From the IMG/VR virus record IMGVR_UViG_3300020029_000047, positions 1-6,134 of that record: a DNA stretch of 6,134 nt; one strand, written 5' to 3'. The DNA comes from a virus. Below, in pieces: positions 1-6,134 of this stretch. The position numbers were made by a program, and so were the translations under genes. Position 1 is the stretch's first letter; each line of letters begins with the position of its first letter. Under the pieces are notes generated by a model, which saw only the letters and a program-made list of their open reading frames with translations, had not been told where the DNA came from and did no database searches.

Positions 1-121
1 ATCGAGGGATCGAGTAATTATAATTGATACACTTCGAAGAATCGAAATAAGACCACGACGCAACGCGAGCAGAAGGACGAGGCATATAACCAAGAAAATC
101 ACCAACGCCAGCAGATACGAA
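1..121. repeat. Left copy of the 121-nt terminal redundancy (same as 6014-6134); circular-contig overlap, not a biological repeat
   Basis: atcgagggatcgagtaattataattgatac...ccagcagatacgaa reads identically at 1-121 and 6014-6134 by eye. It lies inside the Rep coding sequence. Confidence 0.95.
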
Positions 122-775
122 TTTTCGCGTATAACGGCGATGTTGGAGGAGGCAAGATAAAGGTGTAAGTTTTCCATCTACGGTAACATATTTATCCGAA
201 ATCTCTTCGGGATTAAATTGAATTTGTTTAGTAACATATTTGACACAATATCGAGCACGCTTATGAGTAGCCTTCGATAGCCACACAAAACCAAGGTCTC
301 GAACAGCAGCGCGAATTGTGTTGTAAAGAACGTCGGTGCCGAATAGAAAGCCATGAAAATGCAACCGAGGCTCATTTCCCATTTCAGGGTGTGTGCCAAA
401 CTCTTGGAAGAAAGCGTGCTTAAACGAATGACCGAGCTTATGTCGCAAACGCTCATTGAAACGTCGAATGAATCGAGAAGGATCGAGGAGCGCCTCATTG
501 TAATAACTCGGAGCAATCGTTATTGTAATAAAAATAGCCTGCCGACTATTAGCTTTACAACGAGTTAACTCGCGTTCCAATCGAACGAACCAATCATTAC
601 GCTGACGACGCAAGCAGTCTTCGCACTTTCCACAAGGAATCATAAGCCATTGACGAGCAATATCCCAGGGACGAAGGGCGAGTGCAGACTTAGCAACATC
701 AGAACCGTTACGGCAAGGATTTTTCTTGTCGAAATAACGGCGATTTCGTATCCATATGGGAGAAGAGCAAGCCAT
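1..775 (-). CDS. VP4: Replication initiation protein (Microviridae VP4 / gene A-like HUH endonuclease), N-terminal 258 codons; continues across the circular junction into 6013..5718
   Basis: Hand translation of the minus frame not listed in the ORF track. ATG is at 773-775, with an in-frame TAG 15 nt upstream, and the frame stays open to position 1. Protein: MACSSPIWIRNRRYFDKKNPCRNGSDVAKSALALRPWDIARQWLMIPCGKCEDCLRRQRNDWFVRLERELTRCKANSRQAIFITITIAPSYYNEALLDPSRFIRRFNERLRHKLGHSFKHAFFQEFGTHPEMGNEPRLHFHGFLFGTDVLYNTIRAAVRDLGFVWLSKATHKRARYCVKYVTKQIQFNPEEISDKYVTVDGKLTPLSCLLQHRRYTRKFVSAGVGDFLGYMPRPS... Rolling-circle motifs: motif 1 IFITITI, HUH as HFH (codons 353-361), and two-tyrosine motif YCVKYVTK (227-250; compare phiX174 A YVAKYVNK). 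There is also a CGKCEDC cysteine cluster. The M-x-C-x-x-P N-terminus is typical of microvirus Rep. Confidence 0.93.
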   Translation of the reverse strand, partial: MACSSPIWIRNRRYFDKKNPCRNGSDVAKSALALRPWDIARQWLMIPCGKCEDCLRRQRNDWFVRLERELTRCKANSRQAIFITITIAPSYYNEALLDPSRFIRRFNERLRHKLGHSFKHAFFQEFGTHPEMGNEPRLHFHGFLFGTDVLYNTIRAAVRDLGFVWLSKATHKRARYCVKYVTKQIQFNPEEISDKYVTVDGKLTPLSCLLQHRRYTRKFVSAGVGDFLGYMPRPSARVASWSYFDSSKCINYNYSIPR

Positions 776-975
776 TAAAAAAGACTTCTAAGGCAATCAA
801 ACTTAATATAAGGATTAGTACGACGACAACAGGCAAGATAATCATTCGCAGGGCTTTCATCGGCAAACCAGGCGATAATAACTCGCTTTCTGCCGCGATA
901 TGCGCCAACAGAATAACGATGGGGGACACTATTAATAATAGGGGAAAATCTAGGCTTGAAATCGAAATAATCCAT
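775..975 (-). CDS. Hypothetical small basic protein (66 aa), first gene after the non-coding region, coupled to Rep
   Basis: ATG is at 973-975 and TAA at 775-777. The stop shares one base with the Rep ATG (TAATG). Composition is non-repetitive (MDYFDFKPRFSPIINSVPHRYSVGAYRGRKRVIIAWFADESPANDYLACCRRTNPYIKFDCLRSLF), with net positive charge by my count. I recognise no family. Confidence 0.6.
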   Translation of the reverse strand: MDYFDFKPRFSPIINSVPHRYSVGAYRGRKRVIIAWFADESPANDYLACCRRTNPYIKFDCLRSLF

Positions 976-1016
976 AATTTAAAAATATTACTTGACAACA
1001 ATTACTACGTTTCGCC

Positions 1017-1058
1017 GGCCGACAGCCTTAACGGCTGGGACGCTGCGCGTCTTCGGCC
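1017..1058. other. GC-rich three-way-junction inverted-repeat element in the main intergenic region; candidate replication origin or priming signal
   Basis: All pairs are Watson-Crick. The outer stem is 1017-1022 (ggccga) with 1053-1058 (tcggcc). Hairpin A is 1023-1027 (cagcc) with 1033-1037 (ggctg), loop ttaac. Hairpin B is 1039-1043 (gacgc) with 1047-1051 (gcgtc), loop tgc. Only 1038 and 1052 are unpaired at the junction. This gives 16 bp in 42 nt, in the most GC-rich patch of the window. Confidence 0.5.
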
Positions 1059-1103
1059 TCCATGGCTACACTTCGTTTGGGTAATAACGGTAAACCGGTG
1101 AAT

Positions 1104-1137
1104 AAAAAAACCCGCAGGAGAGGAGAATCTCCTGGGG
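1104..1137 (-). terminator. Rho-independent terminator closing the minus-strand gene series
   Basis: The minus strand reads CCCCAGGAGATTCTCCTCTCCTGCGGG followed by TTTTTTT. The stem pairs caggaga 1115-1121 with tctcctg 1128-1134, plus ccc 1111-1113 with ggg 1135-1137. G1114 is bulged and the loop is 6 nt. The T7 run is the complement of 1104-1110. The element lies 47 nt downstream of the 107-aa ORF stop. Confidence 0.8.
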
Positions 1138-1183
1138 CTCAACAAGTTAAAGAACTCTTCCACCAAGCGGGCGGATCACTACT

Positions 1184-1507
1184 CTAGTGCCCTTTCCCTT
1201 CTTCTTTCGACGCGCTTTCATTGTGAGTCAAATCAGTGCTAAACATAAGAACAAGTGTATTATCGAAAAAATCAATCGAAAAATCAGGATACGCAATCAG
1301 GGCCTCTACAAGGCTCGGAATCCGACAATGATTGATATAGGGCGAAGCAAAGATACAAGAATGCTCTACAAAATCAGGAACAGGCGTATGCTCAAGAGTA
1401 GCAAGGGGTAATGTCGAAAACTGATCGTCTTTAATACAACCTACCTGAACAAAATCGGCCTTAATAGCCGGATTAATGCGGCGAATGACTATATGAACCT
1501 GTGTCAT
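1184..1507 (-). CDS. Hypothetical protein (107 aa), accessory, unknown function
   Basis: ATG is at 1505-1507 and TAG at 1184-1186. It starts 23 nt after the preceding ORF and is followed by the terminator. Composition looks globular (MTQVHIVIRRINPAIKADFVQVGCIKDDQF...). I recognise no motif. Confidence 0.65.
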   Translation of the reverse strand: MTQVHIVIRRINPAIKADFVQVGCIKDDQFSTLPLATLEHTPVPDFVEHSCIFASPYINHCRIPSLVEALIAYPDFSIDFFDNTLVLMFSTDLTHNESASKEEGKGH

Positions 1508-1530
1508 AATAATATAATTTAATGTTTCAT

Positions 1531-1836
1531 TTAAAGCTTATCGTAAAAACGCCTCCAAGCATCGGAGTGTTTAATCCAGAATTCGTAACCCTCAGGAGTT
1601 GAATGAAATAGAAAAGCAGAGGAGATGAGGGATTCGGGACCAAGGCTAGGCCTAAGATAAACATATCGGATGTGAGCACGCAACAAGTCTCGAAAGGTTT
1701 CCCGAGTCGTAGAGGTGCGATCGTAGTTCGCCCTAAAGGCGGTGAATATTCCGCGGCGAACGAGCCACTCAACGAATGCGTATTCTATAACATCGATCGC
1801 CAGCCTGTCAACTTTGGAATTTTTAGTTTTTTTCAT
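1531..1836 (-). CDS. Hypothetical protein (101 aa), accessory, unknown function
   Basis: ATG is at 1834-1836 and TAA at 1531-1533. A Bacteroides-type promoter match precedes it. The N-terminus is Lys-rich and the C-terminus is aromatic-rich (FLFHSTPEGYEFWIKHSDAWRRFY). I cannot assign a family from memory. Confidence 0.65.
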   Translation of the reverse strand: MKKTKNSKVDRLAIDVIEYAFVEWLVRRGIFTAFRANYDRTSTTRETFRDLLRAHIRYVYLRPSLGPESLISSAFLFHSTPEGYEFWIKHSDAWRRFYDKL

Positions 1837-1862
1837 AACAATACGGTTATTGGTTTACAATG

Positions 1863-1893
1863 CAAATATAATAACAACAATCTAAAATGCAAA
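1863..1893 (-). promoter_or_regulatory. Putative Bacteroidota sigma-AB type promoter (-33 TTTG / -7 TAnnTTTG) upstream of the 101/107-aa ORFs
   Basis: The minus strand of the 72-nt VP2/ORF101 intergenic region reads TTTG (1893-1890), then 19 nt, then TATATTTG (1870-1863), then 26 nt, then ATG (1836). This is an exact match to the published Bacteroides consensus TTTG-N19-21-TAnnTTTG. Confidence 0.45.
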
Positions 1894-1908
1894 AAAAAAT
1901 CAACAATT

Positions 1909-3279
1909 CTAGCGAGATCTTCGAGTAGTATTATACGAACTTGAGTGAGTGCCACGAGTCATCTCTGTTTTCGCATAACCAACAAGATTTCCTTTCGAGT
2001 CATAACGAGTCGTAAGGGAAGAGCCGGCAGAATCACTCGTAGAACCGCCAGCAGAGATAGTCTTAGATGCACGAGACATGCCTCCACGAATTATACCTGC
2101 ACCGGCGATACTAGCGGCCGCACCAACTAAAGCTTTAGAAATTTCAACATACGGGTCAACCTTCGCATTACGAAGGGCAATACGAGCTTGCTCGGGAAGA
2201 AAATCAGAAGCATTCGCCTCATTTATAATAGTTTTATCGTAGAAGTCTTTAAGCGACATTGAGATTTTAAAAGTCCTAGGACCAGGATTTCCACGGGTAA
2301 TAGGATTTTTGCTTCTAAGATTTTCTGAATACTGAGGATTCGGAATTTCAATATCAAAACGCTTTTCCCAATTACGTGCGAGCTCATTAGCAGTATCGAG
2401 ATTATTTAAACGCAAAGACTCTATGACTTCACCAGCCTGTTCGCCAAGAATTTGATTAAGAGCGGCCTGAGTATTCATCATAAAAGCCTGTGCGGACATC
2501 ACAGCACCTAAATGATCGTTCTCGATATTCAAGCGGCGAACCTCTCCAGCAGTTAGGGCAGCTTGATTCTTTTTTTCATCAATAGTACTCAAAAGAGTGG
2601 CATCTGAAATAAAAAGCGCATTCCTTTCAAGGCTCTCCTGTACCTTAAGAACATCAGTAACGGCCAAATTATGCTTAGTAGCAGCCTGATCTAGAGCTAC
2701 GCGAGTTTGAGCCATGAGAGTATATAACTGGTGGCCAACGTTTTGATCGCTAATTGATCGAGCCTCGGCATTGTCGCGATTGGCAGCAGCGGAATTACGG
2801 TCAACCGTAGACTGAGCAACCATATTCTGTGCAATAGAAGTAGGATCAGCAGGAGCGAAGCCACCGGAAGCAACAGAAGCGCCTCCCGCAGGTCCAGAGG
2901 CGGAGGGCATAGAAGCAGTGCCGCCCGACATGGTAGCATTGACGCCAACGCCAGAAGAGCCTAAAACGGCAGCAGGCGTCACACCAGCCTTTAGGTAACG
3001 ATCGAAAACCTTCGTAGGGTCATTATAGGCGTTCTCGTAATCGAACTGTTTCTGCCAATTAGCATAGGAAAGCTCCGACTGCTTTTGCATTTGCTCTAAA
3101 GCGTACTGCTGTTGAAGCTTCATTTGCTTTTGCTGAAAACGCCATTGGCGGCGGGCGTTCATTCCTCCGAAAAGCTGACCAAGAGCGCCGGTGATCAAGC
3201 CAGTAGTACCAGTAGAAGCAGCAGACTGACCGAGAGCTTGACCAAAAGATGCAGCAATGGGACCAATAGGAGCAGGCAT
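1909..3279 (-). CDS. VP2: Minor capsid / DNA pilot protein (Microviridae VP2, functional analogue of phiX174 H)
   Basis: 456-aa ORF with ATG 3277-3279 and TAG 1909-1911. The N-terminus is Gly/Ala-rich (MPAPIGPIAASFGQALGQSAASTGTTGLITGALGQLFGG). A Gln-rich block follows, then the conserved-looking ENAYNDPTKVFDRYLKAGVTPAAVLG segment, which fits the N-x-YN-x-P...R...AG-x-xP pattern I associate with gokusho/alpa VP2. After that comes a G/A/S low-complexity linker and a long, helix-prone central region. Confidence 0.85.
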   Translation of the reverse strand: MPAPIGPIAASFGQALGQSAASTGTTGLITGALGQLFGGMNARRQWRFQQKQMKLQQQYALEQMQKQSELSYANWQKQFDYENAYNDPTKVFDRYLKAGVTPAAVLGSSGVGVNATMSGGTASMPSASGPAGGASVASGGFAPADPTSIAQNMVAQSTVDRNSAAANRDNAEARSISDQNVGHQLYTLMAQTRVALDQAATKHNLAVTDVLKVQESLERNALFISDATLLSTIDEKKNQAALTAGEVRRLNIENDHLGAVMSAQAFMMNTQAALNQILGEQAGEVIESLRLNNLDTANELARNWEKRFDIEIPNPQYSENLRSKNPITRGNPGPRTFKISMSLKDFYDKTIINEANASDFLPEQARIALRNAKVDPYVEISKALVGAAASIAGAGIIRGGMSRASKTISAGGSTSDSAGSSLTTRYDSKGNLVGYAKTEMTRGTHSSSYNTTRRSR

Positions 3280-3280
3280 A

Positions 3281-3472
3281 CTACAGATGAGTTAAATTAT
3301 TAGAGCGGATAATATAATCAACACGAACAGTGTCAATATGAACACCGCTACGCTGCATCCTAGCCTGGGCAGAACACGAGGCAAGAAAGAAGGCGGCTAA
3401 AGCAGCAACGATAGACGAGACAAGCGTCCAAAACGCCTTCGACTTATAAAACGGTTGTTTGATATCAGACAT
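3281..3472 (-). CDS. Small predicted lipoprotein precursor (63 aa; mature about 31 aa). The alternative upstream ATG at 3581-3583 would give 100 aa
   Basis: From ATG 3470-3472: MSDIKQPFYKSKAFWTLVSSIVAALAAFFLASCSAQARMQRSGVHIDTVRVDYIIRSNNLTHL. It has a Lys-containing n-region, an uninterrupted hydrophobic h-region, and lipobox L-A-S-C with Cys33 (codon 3374-3376). TAG is at 3281-3283, 1 nt before the VP2 ATG. The upstream 37 codons coincide with a GC-rich hairpin plus T-run, so I favour the internal start. Confidence 0.6.
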   Translation of the reverse strand: MSDIKQPFYKSKAFWTLVSSIVAALAAFFLASCSAQARMQRSGVHIDTVRVDYIIRSNNLTHL

Positions 3473-3497
3473 GATAGTAGAATTTAAAGAACGATAG

Positions 3498-3575
3498 AAA
3501 AATGCGCGACCTCTCCTGCAGTCGTTACCAATAACCTCTAGCAATTCACGAACTCTTGCAAGAGGGGTCCGCGCA
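3498..3575 (-). terminator. Long imperfect hairpin followed by T5; candidate partial terminator or attenuator after the capsid/scaffold block
   Basis: Arm tgcgcgacctctcctgca (3503-3520) pairs with tgcaagaggggtccgcgca (3557-3575). That gives 16 Watson-Crick pairs interrupted by three small bulges, around a 36-nt interior. On the minus strand the 3' arm is followed directly by TTTTT (complement of 3498-3502). Confidence 0.35.
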
Positions 3576-3605
3576 CGTAACATATATCGTCAAGTAAAGA
3601 ATGTA

Positions 3606-3902
3606 CTATTTTTCTTCAGAATTAGTAGACTTCGAGTCAGACTTACTCCTATCTATCATTGAATCAATAAGTTCTTGACCTACTTCGAGACCGTCAAACT
3701 TATCCATACGAGAGAAGGAATTAGGGTCAAAATCGATATCAGGGTTGAACTTCTCCCCCTTCTCGAAATCAGAAGGCTCAACAACCACATCCGGCCGGCC
3801 GGGAAGAACATCGACAGAACCAGAGCCGTCGAGAACAGACATGATGCGCTGACCACGAGAAACATAAGTGGGAGCATCCTCAAGAAGCCAATCAAGTGCC
3901 AT
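3606..3902 (-). CDS. Acidic 98-aa protein; putative internal scaffolding protein (VP3-like by position and charge only)
   Basis: ATG is at 3900-3902, 12 nt after the VP1 stop, and TAG at 3606-3608. By my count there are about 22 Asp/Glu against about 11 Lys/Arg (MALDWLLEDAPTYVSRGQ...DIDFDPNSFSRMDKFDGLEVGQELIDSMIDRSKSDSKSTNSEEK). Scaffolding proteins of this family are acidic and are encoded beside the capsid genes. I recognise no sequence motif. Confidence 0.45.
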   Translation of the reverse strand: MALDWLLEDAPTYVSRGQRIMSVLDGSGSVDVLPGRPDVVVEPSDFEKGEKFNPDIDFDPNSFSRMDKFDGLEVGQELIDSMIDRSKSDSKSTNSEEK

Positions 3903-3914
3903 AAAATCAATGTA

Positions 3915-5714
3915 TTAACGATTAGTCAAACGGGTTGCAAAAGTTTTATTAATAAGGTTCTTTTTACGAACACTATACGACATATTCACAAAAAAATTGT
4001 CCTCAAGGTTCGAAGCAAAGGGGGAATTAACTTGCGACATATCGACAAACAGAAGGGGATAATACGACTTACTCGAGCCACCGCCGAAGATATCAAGAGA
4101 ACGCTGTTGGACCCAATAAGAGTAAAGAGAATTTGCGCCAACAGGACCCTGAAGCCGAGAAATCTGGCCCAAAACTTCATCGTAGGAAGACCTGAATTCA
4201 TTAAAACAGGGCTCCTGAGCAAGAACAACAGACGAAGCAGTAGAGGTCGACGTCGTAAGACGAAATGCAGGAACGTCTTGATATCCAATATCGTTATAAA
4301 TGGGATTGAAGTAATCCGGACCTTGATACGAAAGGTAATCAGGAGTAATTGAGGCCCAATAATAAACTGGACGAATACTCAGCATATCAATCAGGTAACC
4401 AGGCTCACGAAAATAGTAAGACTGAACGCGACCGAGTCGAGAATTAAACGCAATAGCTCCACCTTGCTGACCAAGAGGGCCACCAGTCGACGACCCAGTA
4501 AAATTATTTTGGCCGGCTTGATTCATGACAATCTGCACATTAACGGTTTGCGAAGCGGAAAAAAGGAGTTTAGGACGGTCTACGTGCTCAATCTTCGAAG
4601 CAAAAAACGTCTCGAGCCAATCAGAATAACGACTACCACCAGCACCAAGCAGGTCCTTGTATTCCTGCAAACGAGAAGCAATGGCCAACTGAGGAATCGT
4701 CGAGACACCGCTCATCGAAACGGCGGAATTTGAACCGGTAGGAAGCAAACGGCTGTAACGGTCGGGATTAGAAGGGACAACGGCCATAGGATGAGCAATG
4801 ACGAAATAAGCGAGTTCCGAGGAGCCGGTAGTAGACCCAGAGGTAGAAAATTGACTCGAAGGAGTGGAAGCACCCCAAGTTGCATAACCAGCGGAAACAG
4901 TAGGAACCACAGATACAGGATAACCGTCCCCCGCGGAACCAGCGCCGCCAATGTCAGAACGAATAATCTGATAGAAAAGGCTGAACCGATTGTAAGTTCC
5001 ATTCGTAGAAGGCACCGAGGAAGGATAAAATTGGGATTCAAAAAATGCGTCTAAATACTCCAAATTTCCATAACGCTGTGTGAAGAGCGAAGGGGAAGAA
5101 TTGTATCCTACAATACGAGAAGGGCCAGAAACGCCGTCCTCGCTACTGTACAAATACCAAGAAGCAGGCCAAGCGAAGGAATATACACCCCATTGAGAAT
5201 AACCGTAATAATTACGAACTATATCCCAGTAAGCAAGATACGAATCCGCATTAACCCACTGAGTATGAAACGTACCAGCAGGGAGGACGACACCAGCAGG
5301 ACCATTGATACCGGAGTTGACACCATGGAACGAATGGCGCAACCAGAAATTCAACGAATTTGTAAACGAATAACTACGACCAAAAACAGAGCCAGACAAA
5401 GCGTTAGGAATCCAATTCAGACTCAAATTGTTCATGTCAAATTTGCTACTATTCGTCCTCATCTCGGGGTGATACAGCTGCAGAGGCACCCAGAAACGAT
5501 GAAGTCGAACAGTATAGGGATTAAACGTCGGAACAGCAAGAGGATTACTGCGGACGTCAATGCCCTGCTCGATAGAGACGCGGTCACGGGCGTTGATAAA
5601 ATCGATTCGCACCGGATATAAAATACCCGGTGTACACGTAAAAGCCTTACTCTCAGGAACATCGTAGCGAGAGTAGCCGTTTACAACGTGAGAAATAAAA
5701 GGTTGTTTCCCCAT
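3915..5714 (-). CDS. VP1: Major capsid protein (Microviridae VP1 / F-protein family)
   Basis: This is the longest ORF (599 aa), with ATG 5712-5714 and TAA 3915-3917, starting 3 nt after the Rep stop. The N-terminal block SRYDVPESKAFTCTPGILYPVRIDFINARDRVSIEQGIDVRSNPLAVPTFNPYTVRLHRFWVPLQLY follows the conserved pattern of microvirus capsid N-termini: short motif, G-x-L-x-P, P-x-D, then R-x-x-x-F-x-VP. Size and the Ser/Gly/Thr-rich central insertion fit gokusho/alpa-type VP1. Confidence 0.92.
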   Translation of the reverse strand: MGKQPFISHVVNGYSRYDVPESKAFTCTPGILYPVRIDFINARDRVSIEQGIDVRSNPLAVPTFNPYTVRLHRFWVPLQLYHPEMRTNSSKFDMNNLSLNWIPNALSGSVFGRSYSFTNSLNFWLRHSFHGVNSGINGPAGVVLPAGTFHTQWVNADSYLAYWDIVRNYYGYSQWGVYSFAWPASWYLYSSEDGVSGPSRIVGYNSSPSLFTQRYGNLEYLDAFFESQFYPSSVPSTNGTYNRFSLFYQIIRSDIGGAGSAGDGYPVSVVPTVSAGYATWGASTPSSQFSTSGSTTGSSELAYFVIAHPMAVVPSNPDRYSRLLPTGSNSAVSMSGVSTIPQLAIASRLQEYKDLLGAGGSRYSDWLETFFASKIEHVDRPKLLFSASQTVNVQIVMNQAGQNNFTGSSTGGPLGQQGGAIAFNSRLGRVQSYYFREPGYLIDMLSIRPVYYWASITPDYLSYQGPDYFNPIYNDIGYQDVPAFRLTTSTSTASSVVLAQEPCFNEFRSSYDEVLGQISRLQGPVGANSLYSYWVQQRSLDIFGGGSSKSYYPLLFVDMSQVNSPFASNLEDNFFVNMSYSVRKKNLINKTFATRLTNR

Positions 5715-5717
5715 AAA

Positions 5718-6134
5718 TTAAGTAATTAGTTGAAGTTTATAATAATCTCTCCAAAATTGAAAGATATCCAAATCGAGCCAAGTAGGGGGGTCAAAGTCGG
5801 GCATTTTCCGAGAGGAGGCAGAAAAACGCATTACTTGCTTTTGTTCCCACGTGTATGACGCTCTACGGGATACGGCGGAATTGAGATTGAACCGGTCAAC
5901 ACACAAAGACACAATACGCTTAACCAAAGGAGACTTGCTAAAATGTGCATAAGCGTCAGCAGCGGCAATCGAACGCATGACTTCGTCCTCCGATTTAAGA
6001 TACTTAAGATAGTATCGAGGGATCGAGTAATTATAATTGATACACTTCGAAGAATCGAAATAAGACCACGACGCAACGCGAGCAGAAGGACGAGGCATAT
6101 AACCAAGAAAATCACCAACGCCAGCAGATACGAA
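5718..6134 (-). CDS. VP4: Replication initiation protein VP4, C-terminal part (unique sequence 5718-6013; 6014-6134 duplicates 1-121). Full protein 356 aa, 1071 nt including stop
   Basis: The track ORF 5718..6098 begins at internal Met231 of Rep. The frame remains open upstream to the window end (6132-6134 is a whole codon). Because 6013 mod 3 = 1, this frame is continuous with the 775..1 frame. Stop TAA is at 5718-5720, 3 nt before the VP1 ATG. Confidence 0.93.
   Translation of the reverse strand, partial: FVSAGVGDFLGYMPRPSARVASWSYFDSSKCINYNYSIPRYYLKYLKSEDEVMRSIAAADAYAHFSKSPLVKRIVSLCVDRFNLNSAVSRRASYTWEQKQVMRFSASSRKMPDFDPPTWLDLDIFQFWRDYYKLQLIT
6014..6134. repeat. Right copy of the 121-nt terminal redundancy (same as 1-121)
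   Basis: Same as the left copy. The window ends exactly where the duplicated text ends. Confidence 0.95.

Follow-up and report, generated by a model that had tools for sequence, protein, structure and literature searches.

A conserved lipoprotein gene of gut microviruses and its possible part in phage exit

What is a small lipoprotein-like reading frame doing between two genes of a microvirus? This question is raised by the IMG/VR virus record IMGVR_UViG_3300020029_000047, whose positions 1 to 6,134 we analysed as a whole and refer to as the window (6134 nt). An open reading frame (ORF) on the minus strand of the window, at 3281..3472, lies between ORF98 and the gene of the pilot protein VP2, and an earlier reading of the sequence (the original prediction) took it for a 63-residue lipoprotein precursor that would act either as a receptor blocker like Llp and Cor or as a lysis or envelope effector. 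Our analysis indicates that this mini-lipoprotein gene is a bona fide phage gene, which very probably encodes a Sec-exported prolipoprotein and would give rise to a 31-residue lipopeptide on the periplasmic face of a Bacteroidota host's envelope. As for the two proposed roles, the evidence leans modestly to lysis or exit from the cell.

The ORF runs from an ATG at 3472 to a TAG at 3283-3281 (minus strand) and encodes MSDIKQPFYKSKAFWTLVSSIVAALAAFFLASCSAQARMQRSGVHIDTVRVDYIIRSNNLTHL, that is, 63 codons followed by the stop codon. Residues 1-32 (3377..3472, minus) have the layout of a signal peptide, with an n-region carrying K5, K10 and K12, an h-region from A13 to L30 that forms an uncharged hydrophobic core of 18 residues, and the lipobox L30-A31-S32. 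The next codon (3374..3376, minus) encodes Cys33, the predicted +1 site of lipidation and cleavage in LAS|C, and the predicted mature lipopeptide of 31 residues, CSAQARMQRSGVHIDTVRVDYIIRSNNLTHL, corresponds to 3284..3376 (minus). The segment AALAAFFLASC at residues 23-33 agrees with the PROSITE rule PS51257, which asks for a K or R among residues 1-7, a stretch of no fewer than 6 uncharged residues ahead of the lipobox and a Cys at position 15-35; K5 lies within the first 7 residues, and Cys33 within 15-35. Every feature of the signal peptidase II (SPase II) type architecture that the original prediction described is therefore present, and so is the single nucleotide that it noted between this gene and VP2, the stop codon occupying 3281-3283 and the VP2 start codon 3277..3279 (minus). 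The same 1-nt spacing is found in MG945141, MG945455, MG945456, OQ686889 and MK765557. Moreover, the mini-lipoprotein is the sole ORF in the six frames of the window that passes the lipobox rule. However, since about 12% of mononucleotide-shuffled windows also yield at least one ORF that passes it, one genome by itself is only suggestive, and our argument depends on the comparison of relatives.

All 84 related loci first examined keep the 63 codons whole, and Cys33 is invariant in all 83 ungapped relatives. The ORF is thus neither absent nor disrupted in these relatives; its absence or disruption is what the original prediction had named as speaking against it. Variable sites among close relatives are distributed over the three codon positions as 29/13/61 of 63, and the ratio of nonsynonymous to synonymous substitution rates (dN/dS) is 0.052 for the whole gene, with a dS of about 1.4 and saturated synonymous sites; by part, it is 0.042 for the signal peptide, 0.066 for the mature part and 0.041 for codons 34-58. 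Judged by these values, the gene is under very strong purifying selection. Among close relatives, no other protein of the genome is as well conserved as its product, which has an identity of 92%, compared with 87% for Rep, 85% for ORF98, 69% for the capsid and 60% for the pilot protein. The LASC of the window agrees with the lipobox pattern [LVI][ASTVI][GAS]C. The lipobox of close relatives reads LSSC (40), LASC (35) or LTSC; in distant relatives T, V, A or M often stands at -3, but position -1 invariably holds S, G or A.

When 1.84 billion representative proteins were searched with a profile, 64 matches came up, and all genuine homologues among 63 representative clusters have a Cys at the junction of signal and mature peptide, across at least four types of signal peptide and at least four types of mature peptide. 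The common signal peptide, K-x-K-x-FWTLV..IVAAL.AFF, which is kept in 56 of about 61 representative clusters differing by more than 50%, is joined to at least four mature-peptide types. Conversely, the mature peptide of the window, which we call type A (G-V-H-I-D-T-V-R-V-D-Y-I-I-R-S), also stands behind at least three unrelated signal peptides (P0146, P0153, P0156, L099 and L100). That the junction Cys survives this shuffling of parts fits a site of processing and lipidation, and the conservation of the Cys and of the hydrophobic region, which the original prediction had suggested as a check, is borne out by both data sets.

We then considered the start codon. The longest ORF of the window begins at 3583, and several gene callers as well as GenBank records give a protein of 100 aa, as would be expected if the product were not a 63-residue lipoprotein but a longer one starting at that ATG, or if the shorter ORF were a chance one. 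However, the 37 codons between that ATG and the conserved Met are not conserved as a protein: 31 of the 84 relatives have a stop 1-5 codons before this Met, and in others the upstream stretch is read in another frame or contains insertions, so that a 100-aa cytoplasmic protein from 3583 is ruled out. In addition, the upstream stretch is conserved as nucleotides and holds a covarying hairpin, whereas the 63-codon part has the 29/13/61 pattern and a dN/dS of 0.05. We regard a longer or a chance product as scarcely credible. Translation from 3583, which the original prediction had listed as evidence that would overturn it, is answered in the negative by these comparative data, and the start is at 3472.

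The stretch between ORF98 and the lipoprotein gene (3473..3600, minus) is instead a conserved non-coding element, which consists of an invariant 27-nt box, ACTTGACGATATATGTTACGTGCGCGG (3569-3595, minus), the covarying hairpin and a T-rich box, TTTTTCTATCGTTCTTT (3487-3503, minus), with the spurious ATG at 3581-3583 inside it. It is conserved at the nucleotide level in relatives whatever the reading frame, including relatives without a lipoprotein gene, its fold energy is -40.2 kcal/mol (z -2.8), and 10 of the 14 pairs of the hairpin show compensatory changes. The element has no match in Rfam, nor did an Rfam scan of the whole window (E <= 1) give any. It looks like a large intrinsic terminator, and expression of the lipoprotein would accordingly be low, by read-through of this terminator-like hairpin following the capsid and ORF98 genes, with the lipoprotein co-translated in tandem with VP2 across the 1-nt gap. 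The invariant box could be a Rep or recombinase site. It may resemble the Rep nick site of phiX174; a XerC/D dif site was considered and is improbable, as the dif-like repeats of related Alistipes prophages (see below) differ in sequence and the box is absent from those prophages.

Homologues are numerous: 394 were found in a collection of 5.8 billion proteins, all on contigs of about 6 kb, and many of them are called at exactly 63 aa, as is the exact window protein in IMG. Of 85 near-complete genomes in the subclade of the window, at least 84 have a lipoprotein gene in this slot, about 78 with type A and six with type B, which is 65 aa long and has the same signal peptide; the more distant PP511496 is a seventh type-B example. 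The family spans relatives with a capsid identity down to 47%, and a second, unrelated microvirus clade (capsid about 25% identical) also carries it, there upstream of Rep. The mature types A and B have been swapped independently of the relatedness of capsid, pilot protein and Rep; for instance, the type-B genome L126 is 91% identical in VP1 and 81% in VP2 to type-A genomes. Three type-B genes (L126, L132 and L160; about 120 nt past the conserved box) have the lipobox L-E-S-C, in which the Glu at -2 is unusual for SPase II substrates, and these proteins may be processed poorly or differently.

To which host does this family belong? A scan of one genome per prokaryotic species (a set of 185,579 species) with the family alignment gave three matches, all in Alistipes (Bacteroidota), one of them the cultured isolate A. 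montrealensis kh20; the same set searched with the capsid alone gave no prophage. The three matches lie in microvirus prophages (L098:7878-13628, L099:7510-13516 and L100:7815-13400) flanked by dif-like direct repeats 5.6-6.0 kb apart. Gene order differs among the three, and in each the lipoprotein gene comes first after the left repeat. The repeat of L098 is TTACTATTATGTTAAAT[A/T]ATA and contains TTATGTTAAAT, which we take to be the canonical XerD arm; a -7-like motif, TAnnTTTG, lies 31 nt upstream of the lipoprotein ATG in L098, and the same motif was not found before the lipoprotein gene of the window. Since homologues sit in three Alistipes prophages, the host phylum is Bacteroidota, and the host of the window phage is, on this sequence evidence, an Alistipes-like gut bacterium. 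This is consistent with the lack of a Shine-Dalgarno sequence before any gene of the window and with a Bacteroidota-type -7 promoter motif, TATATTTG, at 1863-1870 (minus), which precedes the ORF101 start by 27 nt. A search of the window for the dif-like motif of these prophages gave nothing beyond chance; therefore, the window phage may be strictly lytic.

The host assignment bears on where the lipopeptide would reside. In Bacteroidota, the signal for export to the surface is an acidic stretch just past the Cys, C-X-K-(D/E)2, or SDDDD in B. fragilis (PMC5080379). The mature peptide of the window begins C-S-A-Q-A-R-M-Q-R, and acidic residues at +2 to +6 are found neither in it nor in any relative checked. 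Since the export signal is missing, the lipopeptide should face the periplasm and not the surface: the host Lgt would lipidate Cys33, LspA would cut between S32 and C33, and the 31-residue lipopeptide would stay anchored on the periplasmic side of the envelope. It contains no Cys besides that at +1 and no Pro, and its core, G43-x-H45-x-D47-T48-V-R-V-D-Y-I-I-R-S57, has an alternating, amphipathic pattern like that of a beta-strand. AlphaFold2 predicted a helix over residues 12-42 from both shallow and diverse alignments, with a predicted local distance difference test (pLDDT) score of 87-92. Scans of the 100-, 63- and 31-aa forms against Pfam, PHROGs, NCBIfam and PADLOC (E up to 10) returned noise only, namely LPAM_1 (Pfam, E=1), YgdI/YgdR (E=0.15) and a PADLOC candidate (E=0.033).

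To look for rival membrane genes, we tested every overprinted ORF of the coding strand. The one inside Rep turned out to be real; the rest are frequently disrupted in relatives, or else their shortness or similarity allows no judgement. This hidden ORF of 119 codons, MENLHLYL...PPYPVERHTRGNKSK, occupies 5831..6134 and continues at 177..122 (minus), in the +1 frame of Rep/VP4, and is open in 79 of 80 relatives. Synonymous differences in Rep drop from 0.41 to 0.15 exactly across it (p ~1e-20), and the amino-acid divergence of Rep is not lower there. No known family matches its product, in which a strongly basic loop (about +7) separates two hydrophobic segments and the tail, ...PPYPVE(R/K)..., is conserved; this layout recurs across the whole clade, genomes without the lipoprotein included. 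We consider it a candidate for a holin-like or E-like lysis protein. The lipoprotein is hence not the only envelope-directed product of the genome, nor is it the universal one of the lineage. In the sister genomes that lack the lipoprotein (L089, L090 and L092) the hidden ORF is 186-200 codons long and begins with a hydrophobic segment like a signal peptide; in PQ006917 (L090:5161-5661) it passes the lipobox rule (MSYSRSFVLLLVACTFMVSC), although T-rich off-frames easily look hydrophobic. This long form is possibly a fused equivalent of the lipoprotein and the membrane protein, as seen in few genomes; an IMG/VR search for more such sister genomes returned only the subclade of the window.

Long forms of 180-220 aa make up roughly half of the representative clusters. 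In the second clade these lipoproteins, about 200 aa long, are encoded upstream of Rep (L093:1512-2114, L094:634-1218, L097:4688-5320, L098:7977-8585, and L101-L104). They begin with the homologous N-terminal module, which is followed by a low-complexity linker overprinted on an out-of-frame ORF of 117-137 aa, then by a hydrophobic run, and finally by a polybasic tail that closes with ...IPLGGSHL; a hydrophobic run (median 15 residues) followed by a tail of about +9 charge is present in 26 of 30 long-form relatives. Codon-position patterns in the lipoprotein frame are 0.24/0.18/0.47 for the N-terminal module and 0.16/0.12/0.36 for the tail, which is protein-level constraint, whereas the linker shows none. 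The tail also resembles the C-terminus of phiX174 J (a basic stretch, then ..GG-x-x-hydrophobic), and the window genome has no equivalent of this J-like tail. The defining topology of a unimolecular spanin (u-spanin) is a lipoprotein signal together with a C-terminal transmembrane domain (PMC6139136), and by sequence the long forms approximately have this topology.

Taken together, these observations lead us to propose, tentatively and at somewhat less than even probability, that the lipoprotein is part of the exit machinery of the phage, acting as a lysis or envelope-exit effector, a role assigned from sequence and analogy. The lipopeptide would weaken or breach the outer cell layers late in infection, acting with or downstream of the two-transmembrane inner-membrane protein encoded within Rep. 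Several observations favor this role. The signal peptide is as constrained as the mature part and is the most widely conserved module of the family, which would be unexpected for a disposable leader, and the lipoprotein is the most conserved protein of the genome. The long forms match the topology of u-spanins, and their tail is under codon-level constraint. The mature type is not linked to capsid or pilot protein, which would be unexpected for an exclusion factor matched to a receptor. Family scans found no endolysin or peptidase in the genome, but the hidden membrane protein is conserved, and since it accompanies the lipoprotein, an envelope-directed pair of genes exists. Finally, the mature part of colicin lysis proteins is about 30 residues long behind an SPase II signal, and the 31 residues found here equal that size; their signal peptide is itself stable and functional, a parallel to the constrained signal peptide of the present family.

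How far do the known systems carry this analogy? The colicin lysis proteins are lipoproteins of small size encoded on a small replicon, which release a macromolecular product from a Gram-negative cell through quasi-lysis and activation of phospholipase A (PMC9517006). In contrast to them, the window protein is encoded by a phage and not by a plasmid, its host belongs to the Bacteroidota, its activity is only a predicted one, and it has no match to PF02402 (Lysis_col), the family of the closely alike cxl proteins, even at E <= 10. Outer-membrane spanins such as Rz1 and T1 gp11 are likewise lipoproteins encoded by phages, whose periplasmic parts are short and, by prediction, unstructured or beta-rich, and the lipoprotein signal on a short periplasmic protein that marks the outer-membrane subunit (o-spanin) Rz1 is predicted here as well. 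However, a cognate inner-membrane subunit (i-spanin) is missing, the neighbours being ORF98 and VP2, and no endolysin, holin or i-spanin family occurs in the genome; the mature peptide also lacks a periplasmic Cys and a Pro-rich region, whereas 507 of 528 two-component spanin systems have a periplasmic Cys for covalent dimers (PMC6139136). Unlike the u-spanin T1 gp11, the window protein ends 31 residues into its mature part, with no hydrophobic C-terminus or transmembrane domain. The long forms come closer, since they carry a lipoprotein signal, a C-terminal hydrophobic anchor and a basic tail, but they have a periplasmic Cys, which none of the 58 known u-spanins has (PMC6139136), their hydrophobic run is short, and the ...IPLGGSHL motif is kept more than a plain anchor would need. 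Homologous short and long forms would correspond to a route from o-spanin to u-spanin by loss of a stop codon, which has been called speculative for want of examples (PMC6139136). Finally, phiX174 E is a small membrane-targeted microvirus protein with a conserved N-terminal hydrophobic segment, as is the protein studied here, but E is overprinted in gene D and is neither a lipoprotein nor subject to cleavage, whereas the mini-lipoprotein has its own slot and a conserved lipobox; the E-like overprinted candidate of the window genome is the hidden ORF in Rep. The original prediction held that lysis by microviruses is known for E alone, which is too narrow, as the peptidase genes of microvirus Families 2, 7 and 14 are also regarded as associated with lysis (PMC9239249).

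A number of points weigh against an exit role. Four sister genomes (about 40% capsid identity), which have the same gene order and the upstream element, do not carry the gene, and its slot is closed in them; because these lack it entirely, the lipoprotein cannot be the core lysis gene of the lineage, and at the scale of the wider lineage it is accessory. Homology to lysis proteins does not rise above noise in Pfam, PHROGs, NCBIfam or PADLOC. The short form lacks an anchor in the inner membrane, an i-spanin partner cannot be recognised, and family scans of the genome found no peptidoglycan-degrading enzyme that a spanin would follow. The periplasmic segments, 31 aa in the short form and about 20 aa in the hidden protein, are too short to bridge the periplasm, and two AlphaFold2 runs gave no confident fold for the mature part. 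Lastly, the only stand-alone small lipoproteins of lytic phages that have been characterised experimentally, Llp and Rtp45, are exclusion factors.

These exclusion factors provide the chief alternative. Llp (T5), Cor (T1/phi80/N15) and Rtp45 are small, stand-alone, accessory lipoproteins facing the periplasm, a location that is also predicted here; Llp and Rtp45 belong to strictly lytic phages and act from inside on FhuA or LptDE (PMC9586334, PMC12685063), and Rtp45 binds LptD partly through beta-sheet. By analogy, the lipopeptide would bind the periplasmic face of an outer-membrane entry complex and block adsorption or DNA delivery ("lytic conversion"), possibly by beta-strand pairing and with an allosteric or steric block, so that progeny would be spared loss on debris and vesicles. 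The amphipathic beta-strand pattern of the mature core would suit such binding. So would the distribution of the gene, which is accessory, occurs at different loci in two unrelated microvirus clades and holds alternative mature-peptide types in one slot. Its position is also suggestive: it adjoins the pilot gene in the first clade, and is the first gene inside the left dif-like repeat in the three prophages, with the -7-like motif upstream of it in L098. Bacteria that carry a gokushovirus are immune to superinfection, through a mechanism not yet known (PMC7062461). However, the type of the lipoprotein does not co-segregate with that of capsid or pilot protein, although the receptor determinants of these microviruses are themselves not known. 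The mature peptide of 31 aa is half the size of those of Llp and Rtp45 (about 55-61 aa), it has no second Cys and hence not the disulphide of Llp, and it has no confident predicted fold. Neither the strong constraint on the signal peptide nor the long forms with their C-terminal anchor and polybasic tail would be explained, and the scans found no similarity to Llp, Cor, Rtp45 or any PADLOC model. We consider superinfection exclusion rather unlikely, though Llp and Rtp45 give it strong precedent.

Alternatively, the protein may be a "protein antibiotic" in the style of phiX174 E or LysM, whose N-terminal helix would inhibit a membrane step of cell-wall synthesis, the lipobox Cys being incidental or serving to fix the topology. 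E has a conserved hydrophobic N-terminus and an exchangeable C-terminus, and in the lipoprotein family, too, the N-terminal hydrophobic module is the part best conserved across distant relatives and the C-terminal peptide is exchangeable; moreover, residues 12-42 are modelled as one confident helix. However, the junction Cys and a small residue at -1 are kept in essentially all homologues, even behind the unrelated signal peptides named above, and the type-A mature peptide is strongly constrained and persists behind different hydrophobic segments. An incidental lipobox and a dispensable C-terminus are thus hard to accept, and this mode of action seems to us very improbable. Other roles in the periplasm or envelope, such as an antiholin-like regulator of the hidden Rep protein, an anti-defence factor or a modulator of vesicles or envelope stress, would be compatible with the failure of either protein to match a known family. 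From its basic loop (about +7) and its conserved C-terminal PPYPVE motif, the hidden protein is predicted to have both termini outside (N-out/C-out), which would put its conserved tail in the compartment of the lipopeptide. On the other hand, it persists in genomes without the lipoprotein and is thus independent of it, and positive evidence for any specific role of this kind is lacking, so that we judge such roles, as a group, to be unlikely.

Returning to phage exit, a more far-reaching version would be that the lipoprotein family and the hidden Rep protein form an endolysin-independent, lipoprotein-based exit system of Bacteroidota microviruses, the first lysis system to be defined for microviruses outside the phiX174 group, and that the short (about 60 aa) and long (about 200 aa) forms preserve a step from an o-spanin-like to a u-spanin-like protein via stop loss and overprinting of the downstream gene. 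We offer this proposal as a doubtful one. The original prediction also held that either role would be new for this family. This stands in so far as no described microvirus gene family matches in the literature searched, where queries combining microviruses with lipoprotein, lysis, signal peptide or Alistipes returned no description of the gene; however, nr already contains the automatic name "MAG TPA: lipoprotein [Microviridae sp.]" (DAU60727.1 and DAH63314.1). What is undescribed in that literature is a near-universal, highly conserved lipoprotein of Bacteroidota microviruses with exchangeable mature peptides and spanin-like long relatives, while small phage lipoproteins that act on the envelope are already known as such. 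In GenBank phage records the gene is hypothetical or missed. MK765557 (L085, 2272-2454 and 2456) and three sister records leave the lipoprotein unannotated and start VP2 141 nt too late, and the records of MG945680 (L087, 3398-3583) and its relatives let VP2 begin at an upstream ATG of a different frame and run across the lipoprotein gene. For annotation it is of practical note that many GenBank microvirus records omit the gene or give it a wrong start.

The window itself is a complete circular microvirus genome. Its ends (1-121 and 6014-6134) are identical over 121 nt, giving a true length of 6013 nt, and joining them leaves Rep (about 356 aa) intact. The closest GenBank records are unclassified faecal Microviridae with about 78% nucleotide identity. 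All genes lie on the minus strand, in the order Rep/VP4, which wraps around the window ends, the capsid gene VP1 (5714..3915; Pfam Phage_F, phrog_514), ORF98 (3902..3606), the mini-lipoprotein, VP2 (3279..1909; phrog_8689), ORF101, ORF107 and ORF66. The last of these, which encodes 66 aa at 775-975 (minus) and lies upstream of Rep, has an open frame in 59 of 61 relatives, with a mean identity of 73%, and is probably a real gene. Between ORF107 and ORF66, at about 1000-1190 (minus), lies a GC-rich, structured-looking non-coding stretch without a match in Rfam, whose off-frame translation RLRPPWLHF recurs as RLRAPWLHF at the unrelated clade-2 locus L093 (about 590-940), which suggests a nucleotide element common to both clades.

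Few phages of the animal gut are as abundant as microviruses, and how they lyse their hosts or exclude competitors outside the phiX174 group is not known. With the lipoprotein and the hidden Rep gene as two short candidates that can be tested, and the A. montrealensis kh20 prophage as a culturable entry point, this question becomes a testable one. If the lipoprotein is lytic, it would be a new kind of lysis effector of single-stranded DNA phages, one that targets the envelopes of Bacteroidota and might find antibacterial use. Should it prove to be an exclusion factor, none smaller would be known, it would be the first in Microviridae, and it could serve as a probe for the receptor or entry complex.

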